Positions 3,789-59,736 of a DNA stretch of 64,000 nt are shown piece after piece (the stretch's first letter is position 1; every line of letters starts with the position of its first letter). Both the position numbers and the translations under genes were made by a program. The stretch covers positions 5,330 through 69,329 of the forward strand of contig JBAZEZ010000009.1 of the NCBI GenBank assembly GCA_041653615.1, in the 5' to 3' direction. The notes under the pieces are model-generated. The model did no database searches, was not told where the DNA came from, and was given only the letters and a program-made list of their open reading frames with translations. Source of the stretch: Candidatus Ratteibacteria bacterium. GTDB taxonomy: Bacteria; Ratteibacteria; UBA8468; MWAK01.

Positions 3789-3862
3789 TCGGGGCGACTG
3801 GATTCGAACCAGCGACCACCTGAACCCCATTCAGGTGCGCTACCAGGCTGCGCTACGCCCCG
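3789..3862 (-). tRNA. tRNA-Pro (anticodon GGG), CCA not encoded
   Basis: Reverse complement CGGGGCGTAGCGCAGCCTGGTAGCGCACCTGAATGGGGTTCAGGTGGTCGCTGGTTCGAATCCAGTCGCCCCGA: full cloverleaf, anticodon loop ATGGGGT, T-loop TTCGAAT. Confidence 0.96.
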
Positions 3863-3866
3863 AAAT

Positions 3867-3909
3867 AATCCTGTCATTCCCGCCTACCACATGCGGGAAT
3901 GACAGGATT
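3867..3909. repeat. ATTCCC/GGGAAT palindromic repeat, perfect 17-bp stem
   Basis: aatcctgtcattcccgc-N9-gcgggaatgacaggatt. Confidence 0.9.
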
Positions 3910-3910
3910 A

Positions 3911-4708
3911 TTACGCTTTGATTTTGCCTGCACGGAAAGCGGTTAAATACTCGACGCAATACTGGTCAAGTCCCATCAGCCCTTCCGCGGAAAGAGCGGC
4001 GGCAATCATCCCGGTATCGGTCGGGTCTATCAAAGCGGAATCAAGCCCATACCCGATTGCCAACGCCAGAAAATAACGGTTGAGCATTCTCCGCTCCGGA
4101 AGTCCGAAGGAAACGTTGGAAAGCCCGCAGGTTGTTTTGACGCCGGGAATCGCCTGCTTGATGGCTACAATCGCTTCCAGAAAAATCCGGCCGTTATTCG
4201 GGTCGGTCCCCACCGGCTGAGCCAGCGGGTCAAGGTAAATATCCTCAACCTTCACTTTCCGGGCAACAAGTCTGCTTACTATCTTCTCCGCGTTCTCCAC
4301 CCGGGTGGCCACATCGCAGGGAATGCCCCGGTCGTCCATGGTCAAGCCAACAACCTTGCCGGTATAACCTTCGAAGAGCGGGAGCATTGCTTCCAGTTTG
4401 GCTTTCTCCGCATTGATGGAATTAACCATAACCTTCCCTTTAACCAGGGGCAGACAGATTTTTAAAGCATTCGCGTCGGCGCTGTCCAGGCAAATATCGG
4501 TATAGCCGATTTCCTGAACCGTCTCCACCAGCCAGCGCAGACCCGCCGACTCGTCCCCGGAACCAAGACCGGCGTTAAGGTCAAGATAACCGGCGCCGGC
4601 TTCCATCTGGATGCGCGCCTCTTTCTGGATAAACACCTTGTCCCTTGCCCTTAAGGCTTCGGCAATCTTTTTACGGGTTGCGTTGATGCGTTCGCCAATA
4701 ATAAGCAT
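3911..4708 (-). CDS. acsE: Methyltetrahydrofolate:corrinoid methyltransferase (AcsE/MeTr-like pterin-binding protein)
   Basis: MLIIGERINATRK, LDLNAG, ICLDS, MVNSINAE, IYLDPL, TCGLSNVSFGLPERRMLN; SD ggaggt before ATG 4708. Confidence 0.8.
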   Translation of the reverse strand: MLIIGERINATRKKIAEALRARDKVFIQKEARIQMEAGAGYLDLNAGLGSGDESAGLRWLVETVQEIGYTDICLDSADANALKICLPLVKGKVMVNSINAEKAKLEAMLPLFEGYTGKVVGLTMDDRGIPCDVATRVENAEKIVSRLVARKVKVEDIYLDPLAQPVGTDPNNGRIFLEAIVAIKQAIPGVKTTCGLSNVSFGLPERRMLNRYFLALAIGYGLDSALIDPTDTGMIAAALSAEGLMGLDQYCVEYLTAFRAGKIKA

Positions 4709-4724
4709 AAAAACCTCCAAATTT

Positions 4725-4750
4725 GGGAGGGGGTGAAACCCCTCCCCTAC
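4725..4750 (-). repeat. GTAG-type REP (GTAGGGGAGGGG subfamily)
   Basis: Reverse complement gtaggggaggggtttcaccccctccc: GTAG followed by a hairpin. Confidence 0.8.
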
Positions 4751-9671: not shown

Positions 9672-9703
9672 ATATAGCGGTACGATTCATCCGACGTATT
9701 GTC

Positions 9704-9727
9704 GTAGTGCGACCCTTTCAGGGTCGC
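9704..9727 (+). repeat. GTAG-type REP (GCGACCCT subfamily), left island boundary
   Basis: gtagtgcgaccctttcagggtcgc; inverted copy at 17564-17587 (23/24) and a third copy at 61010-61033. Confidence 0.85.
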
Positions 9728-9735
9728 CGGGTTTT

Positions 9736-9789
9736 GTAGGGGCGGGGATGCATCCCCGCCCACGGAAGGGGGCACAGCCCCTCCCCTAC
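9736..9789. repeat. Inverted REP doublet (GTAGGGG...CCCCTAC)
   Basis: gtaggggcggggatgcatccccgcccac followed by gaagggggcacagcccctcccctac. Confidence 0.85.
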
Positions 9790-9852
9790 ACAAGCCATCT
9801 CTTGACTTATACAACAATGTTTGGTATAATATCTGCAAAATAGGAGACGATT

Positions 9853-17563: not shown

Positions 17564-17587
17564 GCGACCCTGAAAGGGTCGCGCTAC
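17564..17587 (-). repeat. GTAG-type REP (GCGACCCT subfamily), right island boundary
   Basis: Reverse complement gtagcgcgaccctttcagggtcgc; 23/24 identical to 9704-9727. Confidence 0.85.
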
Positions 17588-17666
17588 GAAAGAGACTACG
17601 GCCTCCTATCCACCCCCACCTTGCCTCCCCCGTCAAGGAGGAAACAAGAGGAAACAATTAGTGGAT

Positions 17667-20417
17667 TTACCTCTCCCGCAAGGAAGAAGATGTGGATTTC
17701 CGGTGGGAGAGTTTGACCAGTTCTACGGCCCAGAGCGGGAAGGAAGAGAGCAAAAGAACCAGGACGATGTCCGCAAATCCCAGGGGCTGGGTCCGGAATA
17801 TCCGGTTGACGAATGGCGTATAAACTGCTACAACCTGCAATAGAAAGGAAATGGCGCAGGCGATAATTAGTTTTGGGTTAGTAAACAGACCGATTTTAAA
17901 AATTGATTCCCGGCTGTTCCGACAGTTGAACGAATGGAATAATTGGGAGCAGGCCAGAACCACAAAGGCACCGGTCCGGGCCCGGACAATGCCGCCTTTT
18001 TCCCCAAAAAGGATAACGGCAAACGCCAGGAGACTGCAGAAGGCAATTAAAGCACCCTGACCTAAAATCACCAGCATCTTGTGTTTGTCGATAACCCCTT
18101 CGCTTGTTTTGCGCGGGGGCCGCTCCATAATTCCGGGGTCAACCGGGTCAACACCCAGGGCGAGCGCCGGCAGACCGTCGGTAACCAGGTTTACCCAGAG
18201 TATCTGAACCGGCAATAAGGGCGCCGGCACACCCGCCAGCGAAGCGGTAAACATCACCAGTATCTCTCCGCTGTTACAGGAAAGCAAATAGTGGATAAAC
18301 TTCCGGATATTGTCGTAGATGCCCCGGCCTTCCTCGACCGCGGCGACGATGGAAGCAAAATTATCGTCGGTGATAACCATGTCCGAAACTTCTTTGGTAA
18401 CATCGGTTCCGGAGATACCCATCGCCACGCCGATATCTGCCTCCTTAATGGCCGGCGCGTCGTTTACGCCGTCACCGGTCATAGCCACGATTTCGCCTTT
18501 TTTACGCCAGGCGCTGACGATTCGGAATTTATGCTCCGGCGAAACCCGGGCGTAGACGGAAATCCGGGGCGCCATCTCCAGAAATTCCCGGTCGTCCAGC
18601 CGGTCCAATTCCAATCCGGTCAACGCCAGGGAACCCTCTTCAAAAAACCCCAGCTCTTTAGCGATGGCAATCGCGGTGTTCTTGTGGTCACCGGTAATCA
18701 TCACCGTCCGGATACCGGCGCCCTTGCACTTGGTTATCGCTGCCCTGGCCTCTGCCCGCGGCGGGTCCATCATCGCAATCAGTCCGGCAAAAATAAGGTC
18801 TTTTTCGATATTATCCGCCTCGTACTGTTTTGGAACCTCGTCCAAGTAACGGTAAGCGACCGCGATGACCCGCAAAGCCTGGTTGGCCAACGTAAGATTC
18901 TGTTCGAGGATTTGTTTTTTACGGGCTTCGGTAAGTATAACCCCCTCACCCTTGCCCTCTCCCTGCAGGGGAGAGGGAATATATTCGCGTGTACAATCGT
19001 TCAGCAGGATGTCCGGAGCGCCCTTGACGTAAATCACCGGCCGCGCTCCCTCCCGTCCTCCTTCGGCGGAATAACGGATTATGGTCATCTTTTTACGCTC
19101 GGAATCAAAGGGTATTTCCTGAAGAAACGGCATCGATACCTCAAGCTCTTCCTTCCGAATATCCGCCTTGGCCGCCGCGGTTAAAATGGCACCTTCGGTA
19201 GGGTCGCCGACAATCCGGTAGGTACGATTTTCCGAAACCAGGCTGGCCGAATTACACAGAACACCGCAAAGAAGGTTCTGTTTCAATGCCGGGTATTCCT
19301 GCAATTTTATTGCCCTTCCGTCAATCAGAAATTCTCCGGTCGGTTCATACCCAACGCCGGTGACCTGAAACGAAGTCCCTCCGGCGTAAATGGCCTTAAC
19401 GGTCATTTCATTCCTGGTCAGGGTTCCGGTCTTATCGGTGCAGATAACAGTGGCACAGCCCAACGTCTCAACCGATGGCAATTTACGAATTAAAGCATTC
19501 CGCTTCACCATCCGCTGCACGCCCAAAGCCAGAGCGATGGTCACCACCGCCGGCAAACCTTCGGGAATAGCGGCCACGGCCAGGCTTACCGCAGTGAGAA
19601 AAAGGTCGATAACCTTTCCACCCCTCACTAACCCAATCAAGAAAATCAAACCGACCAGCAGCAGACACAAGTAAACCAGCCACTTGCCGAATTGTTCCAG
19701 CTTTTTTTGCAGAGGGGTCGGTTCCCGGGTGGCTTGTTGAATCATACCGGCAATCTTACCCAATTCCGTGTCCATGCCGGTTTCCACTACCAGCGCCCTT
19801 CCTTTACCGGAAGAGACCGAAGTACCGAGGTAAACCGTATTGCCCCTTTCCGCGAGCGGAACCTCTTTTTCAGCCAGGGCGAGAGTGGTCTTAACCACCG
19901 GTAGGGACTCGCCGGTCAAACTGGCTTCCTGAACGCTGAAGTTTGGGGTAAGATAGACCAGACGGCTATCCGCCGGAACGTTGTCTCCGGCTTCCAGTTC
20001 AATAATATCACCGGGGACCAGTTGGGAAGCAGGCAGTACAACCGGCTTGCCTTCACGAATTATTTTCGAAGCCGGACTGGAAAGTTTCTTGAGAGCGGAC
20101 AAGGATTTTTCGGCGCGAAACTCCTGGATAAAACCTAAAATGGCGTTCAGAACGACAATCCCGATAATCGCGAAAGCATCAACCCATTCCTTTAAAAAAC
20201 CGGAAACCAGTGCGGCGCCGATTAAAACCCAGACGATGAAACCCTGAAATTGCTCCAGAAATATCCCCGGAAGGCTCCGGCCTTTCTTATCCTTTAATTG
20301 GTTCAATCCGTATTTTTCCAGCCGCAGAACGGCTTCCGGAACGGAAAGACCGTTGGAAAGGTCGGTTAAGAGGGTTTTCGCTAAATCCTGGACATCTGAT
20401 TGCCAGTATTTTTCCAT
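17667..20417 (-). CDS. P-type cation (Ca2+, type IIA-like) transporting ATPase
   Basis: [38 protein letters not shown]. Confidence 0.95.
18941..18978. repeat. CCCTCTCCC/GGGAGAGGG palindromic repeat in frame within the ATPase
   Basis: ccccctcacccttgccctctccctgcaggggagaggga encodes [13 protein letters not shown]. Confidence 0.75.
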
Positions 20418-20986: not shown

Positions 20987-21059
20987 TTGTCCGCCAAAGC
21001 TTTAGCGAAGGCAGACACCTATCCTACTACACTAGTGCGGGGCTTTAGCCCCGCACTAC
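20987..21059. repeat. CCGCC-family hairpin (20987-21015) plus GTAG REP (21033-21059)
   Basis: ttgtccgccaaagctttagcgaaggcaga; tagtgcggggctttagccccgcactac. Confidence 0.75.
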
Positions 21060-21097
21060 AAGAAAGATACAAAAAATATCAAAACATAGGGGGAAAA

Positions 21098-30536: not shown

Positions 30537-31952
30537 CTATTTTAGCATAAAATGCTCAACGATTTCCTCTAACTTAAGGAAACGGGAACCCTTGAGAAAA
30601 ACGAAAACGCCGGGTTGCAGATTTTTCTGTAAAAAAGAACCGGCGGCTTGATTATCTTCCGCCCGCAAAATCCTACTTTCGGGAAAACCAAACGAACAGG
30701 CGCCTTCTCTGACTGATTCCTTTTCCGGACCGACCAGAATCAAGCGGTCCGGGTTTACCCGCGCCAGGAACCTTCCCAGGCTAAAGTGACTCCTTTGAGA
30801 AAAACGCCCCAGTTCCCCCATAGAACCGGCTACAATTATCTTACGGTTATTTCCGGCCAGGCGCCGAAAAGTAGACAGCGACTCCCGGAACGAAGCGGGG
30901 TTGGCGTTGTAAGTATCGTCAACGATATAAACTCCGGACTTTTCCAAAACCTGAAAACGGTGTTCCGCCGGTTTGAATTTCGCCAATTGTTCGGTCAGAA
31001 CATCTTCCGAAATTCCAAACCGCAGGGTCAGGGCTGAAGCCGCCAGAACATTCTTGATATTGAAAAGACCGAAAAGAGGAACAGAAAGCGGGAGGAATGT
31101 TCCTTCTTTCCGGCCGAGCAGAAAATGAGTACCCTCCGGCGTGAACCTGATATTTTTTGGGAAATAATCGGCTTCCTTCTTCAAACCGAAAGTAATGCGC
31201 TCCCGCACCGGAAAAGAGGCCAGGAAAGAAAAAAAACGGTCGTCGGCCGGAAGAACAGCGCAACCACGTTTCAGGTAAACCAATAATTCCGCTTTGGCGG
31301 CGGCTATCCGGCTTTTGCTGCGCAAGAAACCCAGGTGCGCGGAACCGATATTGGTAATCAAACCGAAATTCGGAGACGCGGTCCGGCTCAAATTCGCAAT
31401 TTCTCCGGGATGGTTCATGCCCATCTCCAAAACCGCCGTCCGGTCAGCCATGCTCAGTTTAAGAATAGAAAGGGGAAGACCGATTTCGTTATTAAAGTTT
31501 CCGGCATTAGCTATTACGCGATAAGAAGCGGAAAGAATATGCGCGATAAGCTCCTTAGTTGTAGTCTTGCCGCTGCTTCCGGTTATGGCGACAACCGGTA
31601 TCTTGAATTTTCGGCGGTAATTTTCGGCGATGGCCAAAAGCGCTTTTTTGGTGTCGGGAACTTCGATTAAAATAAATCCCCCTTCACCTCGCCTCTCCCC
31701 GTTGGGGAGAGGATAAAGGTGAGAGGGACTAAATTTTCCCAAAGCAAACAAAGAACCGGAAGCACCTTTAGCGACGGCCGCGGCTATAAAGTTATGCCCG
31801 TCAAAATTCTCTCCGGCAACCGGGATAAAAAAATCCCCGCGTTTCAGGCTGCGGCTATTAATTGAAACGGAACGAATCACGGAATCCTGTCGTCCCTGCT
31901 TAAGCAATCCGCCGGTCCAATCCAGAAGTTCTTTTACGGTTATCTTTTCCAT
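30537..31952 (-). CDS. murF: UDP-MurNAc-tripeptide:D-Ala-D-Ala ligase
   Basis: INSRSL, DGHNFI, AITGSSGKTTTKE, NFNNEIGLP, DDTYNANPAS, GSMGELG, KGSR; start at ATG 31952. Confidence 0.95.
   Translation of the reverse strand: MEKITVKELLDWTGGLLKQGRQDSVIRSVSINSRSLKRGDFFIPVAGENFDGHNFIAAAVAKGASGSLFALGKFSPSHLYPLPNGERRGEGGFILIEVPDTKKALLAIAENYRRKFKIPVVAITGSSGKTTTKELIAHILSASYRVIANAGNFNNEIGLPLSILKLSMADRTAVLEMGMNHPGEIANLSRTASPNFGLITNIGSAHLGFLRSKSRIAAAKAELLVYLKRGCAVLPADDRFFSFLASFPVRERITFGLKKEADYFPKNIRFTPEGTHFLLGRKEGTFLPLSVPLFGLFNIKNVLAASALTLRFGISEDVLTEQLAKFKPAEHRFQVLEKSGVYIVDDTYNANPASFRESLSTFRRLAGNNRKIIVAGSMGELGRFSQRSHFSLGRFLARVNPDRLILVGPEKESVREGACSFGFPESRILRAEDNQAAGSFLQKNLQPGVFVFLKGSRFLKLEEIVEHFMLK
31678..31727. 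repeat. CCTCTCCCC/GGGGAGAGG palindromic repeat in frame within murF
   Basis: cccccttcacctcgcctctccccgttggggagaggataaaggtgagaggg encodes PSHLYPLPNGERRGEGG. Confidence 0.8.
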
Positions 31953-31983
31953 CCGCTCTTTTGTCGTTCCCGTATGTTTTAGA

Positions 31984-32039
31984 CGGGAATCCATACCTTA
32001 AATATTTAGATTCCCGCTTACTATCCGCGGGAATGACAG
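31984..32039. repeat. ATTCCC/GGGAAT element (partial doublet)
   Basis: cgggaatcc...agattcccgc...gcgggaatgaca. Confidence 0.75.
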
Positions 32040-36611: not shown

Positions 36612-36616
36612 TTGTT

Positions 36617-37027
36617 GGGGGGCGATAAGCCGGGTTCTGTTTAGATAGCCATTTCTCTTGGCCCTGTCTTACGACAGGGCTCAAGCAGCCTACCCGGGGT
36701 ATTTGCGGAGCGGGCGTCCATCCCCCTGCTCGGCCTTGCTCCAGAGAGGTGTTTGCCAAACGGCAATCTTACGATTGCCGCCGGTGAGCTCTTACCTCAC
36801 CTTTGCACCCTTACTCGTCTACGCAAAACTATGGCGGGCTTTGCCCGCAGTAGCCTTGGCGAAAACGGGCGGTTTATTTTCTGTGGCACTTTCCGTTTCC
36901 TTGCGGAACCTGGGTGTTACCCAGTCCCGGCCCGACCGGAGCCCGGACTTTCCTCAGTTACCGACTTTGTCCGCCGAAGCCAGCTTCGGCATAGGCGGAT
37001 GCAGTAACTGCAGCTATCTCGCCCCCC
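36617..37027 (-). ncRNA. rnpB: RNase P RNA (type A) with expanded P3 and P12
   Basis: Minus strand has GAGGAAAGTCCGGGCT, AGTGCCACAGAAAA and ACAGAACCCGGCTTA; P1 GGGGGGCGA/TCGCCCCCC. Confidence 0.95.
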
Positions 37028-37035
37028 CCTAAATA

Positions 37036-37110
37036 CGGTGAACGGTGAATGGTAAATGGTAAAAGATTCAAGAATTAAAGCGGTTACCATTCACTATTCA
37101 CCATTCACTG
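37036..37110. repeat. Heptamer-arm inverted element, copy 2
   Basis: Shares atggtaaaagattcaagaattaaa with copy 1; contains the rnhA stop codon. Confidence 0.85.
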
Positions 37111-37530
37111 CTTTTTATCCAACGCCTTATTCGCCAGCTGGTCGGCGGTTTTGTTTTCGTCGTGACTTAGTTTTTCAAAAGAGACTTTCCCCAACCCGGA
37201 AACAAGGCGCTGCGCCAAAAGATGAAACCGCTTGATATCTTCGTTCTTGACCTGGTAACGACCGGTCATCTGATTTATCAGAAGTTCGCTATCGCTATAA
37301 ATCGTTAATTCCAATACATCGGTTTTTGTCGGTAAATTATGCGCATATAAAAGTGTTTCTCCCAATCCGTAAAGAAGCGCGGTATATTCAGCGATGTTAT
37401 TGGTGGTAATTCCAATTTCAAGGCCAACCTCTTTCAGCGATTGGCCTTCCGGGTCATAAAGAGCGACTCCAATGGCAGACCGGCCCGGATTACCCCGGCT
37501 TGCTCCATCAATGAAAATGGTTAGTTTCAT
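37105..37530 (-). CDS. rnhA: Ribonuclease HI family protein
   Basis: IFIDGASRGNPG, TNNIAEY, SDSELLINQM, ADQLANKALD. Confidence 0.9.
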   Translation of the reverse strand: MKLTIFIDGASRGNPGRSAIGVALYDPEGQSLKEVGLEIGITTNNIAEYTALLYGLGETLLYAHNLPTKTDVLELTIYSDSELLINQMTGRYQVKNEDIKRFHLLAQRLVSGLGKVSFEKLSHDENKTADQLANKALDKKQ

Positions 37531-47016: not shown

Positions 47017-47073
47017 GGGAGGGGACGTAGCCCCTCCCCTACATTAACAACGCCGAGCAAGCTCGGCAACTAC
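47017..47073 (-). repeat. Two tandem GTAG REPs (47017-47042, 47052-47073)
   Basis: Reverse complements gtaggggaggggctacgtcccctccc and gtagttgccgagcttgctcggc. Confidence 0.8.
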
Positions 47074-59209: not shown

Positions 59210-59736
59210 ATTTTTATTATTTCAATTATCTCCCGCGCTACAACCCGCGGAGTTTTACCGTCTGTATCCACGCAGATGTCCGCCTTCCGGTAAAGAGGCA
59301 GGCGCTGCGATAAAAGGTTTTTAATTGTTTTTTCTTTCGGGAGGGGACAGAGCCCCTCCCCTACATTTTTAGGGGCATTCAAAAGCGGACGACCGTTATC
59401 CCCGGCAACCCGTTTTTTAATTTCGCCCGGAGAAACCATCAGAAAAATAACAATACCGTTCTTTTTAAGGTTCTTCCGGTTCGCGGAATCAACGATTGAC
59501 CCGCCTCCGGCGGCGATTACCACGCCTTCTTTCCGGGAAACATCCGCAACCACTTTCTTTTCCAAAGAACGAAAAAACGGTTCGCCCTGACGCCGGAAGA
59601 TTTCCTTAATCGATTGACCGGACTTCCCTTCGATAATAGAGTCGGTATCAATGAATTCGAGATTTAGTTTCCGGGCCAGAATCTTTCCGGTTGAACTCTT
59701 GCCGGCCCCCATGAATCCGGTCAGGACAATTTTCAT
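59206..59736 (-). CDS. aroK: Shikimate kinase with an in-frame REP insertion
   Basis: LTGFMGAGKS, GEPFFRSLE, AAGGG, RPLL, RLPLY. Confidence 0.93.
   Translation of the reverse strand: MKIVLTGFMGAGKSSTGKILARKLNLEFIDTDSIIEGKSGQSIKEIFRRQGEPFFRSLEKKVVADVSRKEGVVIAAGGGSIVDSANRKNLKKNGIVIFLMVSPGEIKKRVAGDNGRPLLNAPKNVGEGLCPLPKEKTIKNLLSQRLPLYRKADICVDTDGKTPRVVAREIIEIIKI
59339..59364 (-). repeat. GTAG REP in frame within aroK
   Basis: gtaggggaggggctctgtcccctccc encodes VGEGLCPLP. Confidence 0.87.

Follow-up and report, generated by a model that had tools for sequence, protein, structure and literature searches.

A dispersed palindromic repeat lies in frame in murF of a Candidatus Ratteibacteria genome and recurs in other essential genes of its lineage

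We analysed a 64,000-nucleotide stretch of contig JBAZEZ010000009.1 (assembly GCA_041653615.1, Candidatus Ratteibacteria bacterium), hereafter the window, which carries a nested palindromic repeat inside murF, the gene for UDP-MurNAc-tripeptide--D-Ala-D-Ala ligase. The murF product contains the Pfam domains Mur_ligase, Mur_ligase_M and Mur_ligase_C and is similar to solved MurF structures (E 3e-64). The longest open reading frame (ORF) has 485 codons; the likely true start is the MEKITV at 31952, which gives a protein of 471 aa and agrees with the database product and with all orthologues. A second copy of the repeat family lies in a Ca-ATPase gene. The features are listed below; positions are coordinates in the 64-kb window throughout, and strands are as given.

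30537..31994, minus strand: murF, longest ORF, 485 aa (Pfam, similarity to solved structures)
31678..31727, minus strand: nested palindromic repeat of 50 bp, in frame in murF (sequence, fold, chance test)
31692..31712, no strand assigned: perfect inner hairpin CCTCTCCCC-GTT-GGGGAGAGG, the core of the repeat family
17667..20417, minus strand: gene for a PMR1/SPCA-type P-type Ca-ATPase, host of the second copy
18941..18977, minus strand: second family copy, a half-element, in frame in the Ca-ATPase gene

The first-pass annotation of this DNA had described a palindrome of about 50 bp with nested stems, translated inside murF, and the sequence is as it was described. The plus strand reads, in order, CCCCCTTCACCT (31678-31689), CG, CCTCTCCCC (31692-31700), GTT, GGGGAGAGG (31704-31712), ATAA and AGGTGAGAGGG (31717-31727). 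The inner stem is complementary at 9 of 9 positions, and the outer arms are imperfect. When the core pattern CCTCTCCCCNNNGGGGAGAGG was searched with up to two mismatches, it occurred twice in the window against 0.00 times expected from 100 shuffles. The transcript strand of the palindrome folded with −38.7 kcal/mol (z −6.0), which was equalled by none of 200 shuffled sequences. A scan of the whole window at the Rfam gathering threshold returned RNase P RNA and one tRNA only, with no match at the palindrome. The palindrome is in frame with murF and causes no break in the ORF. It encodes SPSHLYPLPNGERRGEGG, flanked by GASGSLFALGKF on the N-terminal side and FILIEVPDT on the C-terminal side. The insert peptide, (S)PSHLYPLPNGERRGEGG, corresponds to residues ~89-106 of the 485-aa ORF (75-92 of the 471-aa product), and the tryptic junction peptide predicted from the murF frame is FSPSHLYPLPNGER.

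Palindromes and repeats can mislead short-read assemblers, and a misassembly had been named beforehand as a finding that would speak against the claim. Two independent sequencing runs, one of a landfill metagenome from 2018 and one of a groundwater metagenome from 2022, contained all sampled words of the locus; no RNA run with the locus was found. Contigs of 6.0 kb (landfill) and 7.5 kb (groundwater) spanned the palindrome with 0 differences, and no misassembly was seen. Word depth rose over 31694-31735 in both runs because other copies of the repeat exist: each run contained one further contig with only the 32-bp core between different flanks (...CCCTCTCACCCATC / core / GGGCGTTTTC...). They show that the murF-type core exists a third time, as CCTCTCCCCGTTGGGGAGAGGATAAAGGTGAGA with one mismatch, outside the window and on contigs of similar depth. 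Moreover, palindrome-derived DNA occupies the same site in eight orthologous loci taken from ENA, JGI, NCBI and Logan assemblies. The identical long contigs from two samples and the chance expectation of 0.00 rule out misassembly and a chance palindrome, to which we assign a vanishingly small probability.

In HMMER alignments, a 16-residue gap in the solved structures 4QDI and 4ZIY lies directly opposite the insert. The annotated excess of about 17 residues over typical MurF is in line with this comparison; it does not hold when the nearest insert-free orthologues serve as the reference, since the net excess is then ~10-13 residues. We aligned 27 MurF proteins obtained by protein search, in which the close homologues carry Omnitrophota source names and thereby place the host in that phylum. 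All orthologues at 59-88% identity had extra residues at the insert site, mostly palindrome-derived, and the proteins at ≤55% identity had a short loop there. The gap in the solved structures and the orthologue alignment show that the palindrome was inserted, as judged against other MurF proteins. From the 27-protein alignment, AlphaFold2 gave a model with a mean predicted local distance difference test (pLDDT) score of 90.9. The insert was modelled as coil between the N-terminal-domain strands 66-70 and 94-98, and pLDDT was below 50 at residues 82-91 (471-aa numbering). This low-scoring coil suggests that the insert forms a disordered loop, in a region that has variable length among ordinary MurF proteins too.

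Inverted repeats built on TGTCATTCCCGC / GCGGGAATGACA were found at 31962-32038 and 3861-3915. The one at 31962-32038 fills the spacer between murE and murF and also the 14 spurious codons by which the murF ORF is extended on its 5′ side. In relatives, murE and murF are separated by a gene for glycerate kinase that is absent here; the repeat may therefore be a deletion scar, or it may represent a further repeat family.

The insert-bearing MurF proteins (P0001-P0015) formed one clade in a neighbour-joining tree calculated with the insert columns removed. We extracted the DNA of the site from eight orthologous murF loci (L081 and L083-L089) and found palindrome-derived DNA at the same codon position in 8/8, and likewise in L325. 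A palindrome with common outer arms (CCCCCTCACC ... GGTGAGGGGG) was present in all but one of the eight loci, with interiors that vary:

single inner hairpin: the window, L085, L086
single hairpin whose loop has received a further insertion: L087
three-way junction made up of two inner hairpins: L083, L084, L088
variant form: L089 (the 59%-identity orthologue)
decayed remnant: L081

The one-hairpin forms had fold z-scores of −4 to −5.9, compared with −1.6 to −2.5 in the two-hairpin forms and L089; with −0.6, the L081 insert folded no better than shuffled sequence. At the protein level, truncation or degeneration is seen in the inserts of P0009, P0011 and P0014. The GEG-F(I/V)L motif and the junction on the right are kept across hairpin types, and the frame is intact in all these murF genes despite inserts of differing length and sequence. 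These intact frames are our main argument that the segment is probably translated. Among the one-hairpin orthologues, the identity of the element (0.80-0.94) tracks that of the flanking third codon positions (0.69-0.88), which is consistent with vertical inheritance without strong extra constraint. Taken together, the comparison of these sequences points to a murF insertion that is not recent: one old event, clade-wide, since remodelled into one-hairpin, two-hairpin, nested and decayed forms.

The half-element in the Ca-ATPase gene, CCCCCTCACCC-TTG-CCCTCTCCC-TGCA-GGGGAGAGGG, encodes 12 residues and faces a 7-residue gap in human SPCA1. None of the aligned ATPase orthologues at ~70% identity has an insert. 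All five orthologues at 85-87% identity have one, at one codon position, and the kinds differ. The insert of P0124 (locus L292), CCCCCTCACCCTTTCCCTCTCCCCAACGGGGAGAGGCGAGGTGAGGGGG, is a 49-bp element that encodes PPHPFPLPNGERRGEG and shares 90% identity with the murF element of the window. The murF and ATPase inserts had been claimed as one family, and this sister-genome site bears the claim out. P0123 (L293) has a 108-nt GTAG...CTAC doublet (CNVGEGLRPLPN...) that resembles repetitive extragenic palindromic (REP) sequences and lies in frame, and the insert of P0122 (L294) is a different 102-nt sequence. Neither the murF element nor the ATPase element of the window has the GTAG (or CGTC) head of the REP type.

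GTAG-headed, REP-like hairpins such as GTAGGGGAGGGG-N6-CCCCTCCC form a second, intergenic family in the window, with an inverted doublet at ~9735-9800; the insert in frame at the L293 ATPase site is of this family's type:

4725-4750, 9703-9800, 17564-17588, 21027-21062, 47017-47042, 59339-59364: GTAG-headed hairpins

We scanned species-representative genomes with the 17-mer GGGGAGAGGCGAGGTGA and thereby located the full 49-bp element. The sister assembly CAZBFL01 contains at least five copies that are 88-96% alike, in murF, the ATPase gene and valS, at the end of another ORF and at a contig end. Its murF copy is the most divergent (0.88, compared with 0.90-0.96 among the other copies), as would fit the murF insertion being the oldest. 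The element lies within the zinc knuckle of valS in assembly JAHJUB01, and assembly JAPLMK01 encodes a UvrD_C-like protein with two inserts (L359, Omnitrophota, two sites). Two orthologues of valyl-tRNA synthetase (ValRS) that are 71% identical differ at the zinc knuckle by a clean 16-residue (16-codon) indel, which is the element, and a second valS element is found at another site, ahead of the anticodon-binding domain. The valS elements lie in two Omnitrophota assemblies, at L305 31-150 and at L311 1228-1300 and 1756-1860. The indel and the second-site element show that the repeat was inserted independently into this essential gene. The element is open in 4/6 frames, and three frames are used in genes (GERRGEG, GRGEVRG and, from the antisense strand, QRGEGKGEG), which suggests that an open frame was filtered for and not one peptide. 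The frame-preserving invasion of core genes that had been proposed is found throughout the lineage, in murF, the Ca-ATPase gene, valS (two sites) and the gene for the UvrD-like protein (two sites).

The full form of the repeat is CCCCTCACCC-N3-CCTCTCCCC-N3-GGGGAGAGG-CGA-GGTGAGGGG. Its module CCCTCACC-N-CCTCTCCC-N-GGGAGAGG was found at at least 120 loci in the genome scan and is not lineage-specific; the phyla among the listed matches include Proteobacteria, Planctomycetota, Chloroflexota, Cyanobacteria, Acidobacteriota, Verrucomicrobiota and Omnitrophota. The first-pass annotation had spoken of an unrelated lineage and repeat family. This appears correct with respect to Rickettsia, but the family is not private to the lineage and is shared across phyla and with Escherichia coli. 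Stop-free frames of at least 80 codons on each side were present at 19% of the modules (120 listed loci) compared with 60% of random positions, indicating that the family is normally intergenic. Modules in frame were nevertheless found in the adenylation domain of LigA in a Planctomycetota genome (L163, aa ~361), in the linker of an IcmF-like mutase of Acidobacteriota (L098, aa ~509) and in methionyl-tRNA synthetase (MetRS; L106). The 49-bp subfamily of the murF element, CGA spacer included, occurs near-unchanged in L300, L333 and L334 (Chloroflexota MAG180), in L310 and L354 (Nitrospira/Nitrospiraceae) and in L328 (Bipolaricaulota); its presence in such distant phyla suggests horizontal spread or a strongly constrained recognition sequence.

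The ATPase copy of the window matched 5419/5426 complete E. coli genomes with 80-90% identity (82-84% over 45 nt). The number of places per genome had a median of 13 and reached 30, and most of them were unannotated spacers. One example is CCCCCTCACCCTAACCCTCTCCCTGAAGGGGCGAGGGGAC between ytfQ and ytfR. The E. coli copies share the module CCCCTCACCC-N3-CCCTCTCCC-N4-GGGAGAGGG. We take these matches to be boxC, which is probably correct since copy number, length and intergenic location agree. As outlined in PMC2267715, boxC is 56 bp long and has about 22-32 copies in E. coli. The likeness to E. coli boxC lies in the module CCCTCACCC-N-CCCTCTCCC-N-GGGAGAGGG and in a GC-rich imperfect palindrome of ~50-56 bp. 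Unlike the examined E. coli copies, which are intergenic, both window copies are intragenic and read in frame, and the murF form has a second outer arm that makes it a full nested palindrome. At least three copies are present here, and at least five in CAZBFL01.

The module is associated with genes of the DUF559 family (PF04480). Among the loci that had been selected for a module, 5/5 DUF559 domains adjoined one (L103, L106, L136, L143 and L146), and 2/5 were bracketed by inverted modules. In a reciprocal test, we inspected 80 DUF559 loci from many phyla (L212-L291). A CCCTCTCC...GGAGAGGG hairpin lay within 250 bp of the DUF559 ORF in 60/80 loci, and on both sides in 33/80, whereas the far flanks of these loci gave a background of 0.024 per 270-bp window. 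The commonest architecture was (hairpin-GGGTGAGGG)-ORF-(CCCTCACCC-hairpin), with consistent orientation. The DUF559 gene ycjD of E. coli K-12, located beside fabI (L211 3200-3430), ends in a degenerate module (...RRSPSP*), and a remnant of a second DUF559 3′ end with a full module lies beside it. In a betaproteobacterial assembly (L106 2112-2648), a unit of ~540 bp consisting of module(−), DUF559 ORF and module(+) lies in frame in MetRS; it is stop-free and sits between the anticodon-binding and tRNA_bind domains. DUF559, Vsr and a group I intron homing endonuclease are placed together in the PD-(D/E)XK superfamily (PMC3424549). A tblastn search for a DUF559 gene found none in the window or in the Omnitrophota loci examined, and the literature that we searched on boxC, DUF559 and ycjD contained no link of the repeat to a nuclease or to in-frame insertions. 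The statistical association of the module with DUF559 genes is solid. It is our best lead on a mechanism: a Vsr-like DUF559 endonuclease may mobilise or maintain the repeats, the murF element included. We tentatively suggest that DUF559 genes have the module CCCTCACCC-N-CCCTCTCCC-N-GGGAGAGGG as their non-autonomous partner in a REP/RAYT-like system, and that short derivatives of the module in Omnitrophota settle in permissive loops that belong to essential proteins (murF, valS, Ca-ATPase), where they turn into heritable protein segments.

One further inverted repeat, with 41-nt arms of GGTGAAYGGTGAATGGTAAATGGTAAA-like units, lies at 37031-37115, directly upstream of the gene for RNase P RNA:

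36613-37027, minus strand: RNase P RNA gene

Several known repeat systems resemble the murF element in part. The small dispersed repeats of cyanobacteria, reportedly described by Elhai and co-workers in 2008, are mobile, have open frames and are sometimes fused in frame to host genes, features shared with the element studied here and with ERIC/RU and MITEs (miniature transposable elements with inverted repeats). Those repeats are 100-170 bp long, or are restricted to lineages and have terminal inverted repeats and target-site duplications. The murF element does have terminal inverted repeats (its outer arms, CCCCTCACC / GGTGAGGGG); it differs from ERIC/RU and MITEs in that no clear target-site duplication was seen and in that essential genes were struck repeatedly. 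A parent element with matching ends and a transposase was not found. Intragenic ERIC/RU and other bacterial MITEs are known as small mobile repeats with open frames (Delihas 2007, PMC2759123; review PMC10969869). REP/REPIN-RAYT systems likewise consist of short hairpins, often in inverted doublets, with an associated gene between inverted copies, which here would be DUF559. In contrast to these systems, the murF element has no GTAG head, and the associated gene encodes a PD-(D/E)XK Vsr-like nuclease and not a Y1 transposase. The closest functional analogy is with Rickettsia palindromic elements (RPEs), as had been proposed. By the account of Ogata et al. 2000/2002 given in PMC10969869, RPEs are about 100-150 bp long, and the families RPE-1 to RPE-10 are restricted to Rickettsia. 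Both are dispersed palindromic repeats that occur in frame in unrelated housekeeping genes, several of which are hit, and that encode a surface segment compatible with the fold. The analogy is functional only: the element measures ~50 bp compared with ~150 bp, resides in free-living Omnitrophota, occurs in many phyla and uses several frames, and it appears to be unrelated in sequence. In-frame invasion by repeats is already known. New, by the literature that was searched, are the family involved, the phylum of its host, the recurrence of hits in essential genes and a persistence throughout the clade that is accompanied by remodelling.

We consider it highly probable that the murF palindrome goes back to an old insertion of a dispersed palindromic repeat into a permissive MurF loop, with the frame kept, and that it has since been translated, inherited vertically and remodelled. 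A short non-coding repeat would have been copied, in the ancestor of an Omnitrophota clade, into DNA that encodes a permissive loop on the surface of the N-terminal domain of MurF. It could survive in the essential murF because its length keeps the frame, the frame used is without stop, and the resulting Pro/Gly/Glu/Arg-rich disordered loop spares the fold. Purifying selection would have filtered for the frame and the lack of stops, and the segment would be transcribed and translated as part of MurF. Vertical inheritance would have followed, during which the site may have been altered by nested or additional hairpins, partial deletions and decay. The insert would then be close to neutral, and is most likely tolerated rather than functional.

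Some of our observations weigh against a single old insertion that was passively inherited. The palindromic character persists over 59-88% protein identity, L089 (59%) included, and several hairpin architectures occur at the murF site among nearly equidistant species; selection for the hairpin or repeated re-insertion at a hotspot could explain both. At the ATPase gene, unrelated palindromic elements, among them a GTAG-headed REP doublet, share a codon position at 85-87% identity, which suggests a targeting or turnover process beyond a single passive insertion. We also sought target-site duplications. The filled and empty valS sites revealed no clear one and the ATTTA-like flanks at murF are ambiguous, so that none was convincing at either gene. 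Finally, no mobilising gene was found in the window, where DUF559 was sought by tblastn and Y1 transposases were not searched for.

The strongest competitor, that the murF site (and the ATPase site) is a hotspot at which repeated independent insertions target pre-existing hairpins, is possible though doubtful. It would account for the differing architectures interspersed on a star-like tree, for the L087 insertion nested in a hairpin loop, for three unrelated element types at the ATPase site of close relatives and for the frequent arrangement of modules in adjacent arrays elsewhere. The divergence of the one-hairpin murF copies parallels that of the flanking gene, however, the divergence of the CAZBFL01 murF copy fits a greater age, and conservation across types extends to both the GEG-F(I/V)L motif and the junction on the right. 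An explanation at the level of the nucleic acid, in which the hairpin is selected in the mur operon because on the mRNA it attenuates transcription in a translation-dependent manner, serves RNase processing or stability, or makes the ribosome pause between the N-terminal and the central MurF domain, appears improbable. In five orthologues the fold reaches −36 to −51 kcal/mol (z −4 to −6), and palindromic symmetry is kept despite sequence change, both in forms with one or two hairpins and in the orthologue of 59% identity. Moreover, the gene-strand hairpin is followed directly by UUUAUUUUAAU, which looks terminator-like by eye; in the transcript, the composite hairpin is followed by UUUAUUUU (F-I-L-I codons). 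A terminator scan gave no call at the hairpin, however, and the U-rich tail consists of the conserved FILIEV codons. Structure is lost in some orthologues (z −0.6 in L081, −1.6 to −2.5 in the two-hairpin forms), and copies of the element that lie in unrelated genes, in either orientation and in three frames, lack U-tails. Since the divergence of the element tracks that of synonymous sites, we judge strong selection for the hairpin unnecessary. It is less likely still that the peptide is an adaptive new MurF loop, for example a contact surface for divisome or Mur proteins. Such a role could explain why the right half, G-E-R-R-G-E-G, is conserved in several orthologues and why every member of the 79-88% identity clade has kept extra residues. 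It is difficult to reconcile with a loop whose sequence, length and source hairpins vary widely among species 80-88% identical elsewhere, which is predicted to be disordered and which is shortened or degraded in some lineages; in other genes, the same DNA gives different peptides.

Our findings indicate that selfish palindromes colonise essential genes with the frame preserved not only in the obligate intracellular Rickettsia, from which this is best known, but in a free-living, uncultivated phylum as well, by a repeat that is much shorter than RPEs and taxonomically widespread. The insertions provide a natural map of insertion-tolerant loops in MurF, which is an antibiotic target, in ValRS and in the Ca-ATPase. 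For annotators, extra Pro/Gly/Glu-rich loops of the type "PLPxGERRGEG" in metagenomic proteins are to be recognised as repeat-derived. That the module flanks DUF559 genes, ycjD beside fabI among them, suggests a testable source of the boxC repeats, which are so far unexplained. If the suggested partnership is true, DUF559 genes and their modules constitute an unrecognised system, which would explain the origin of boxC.

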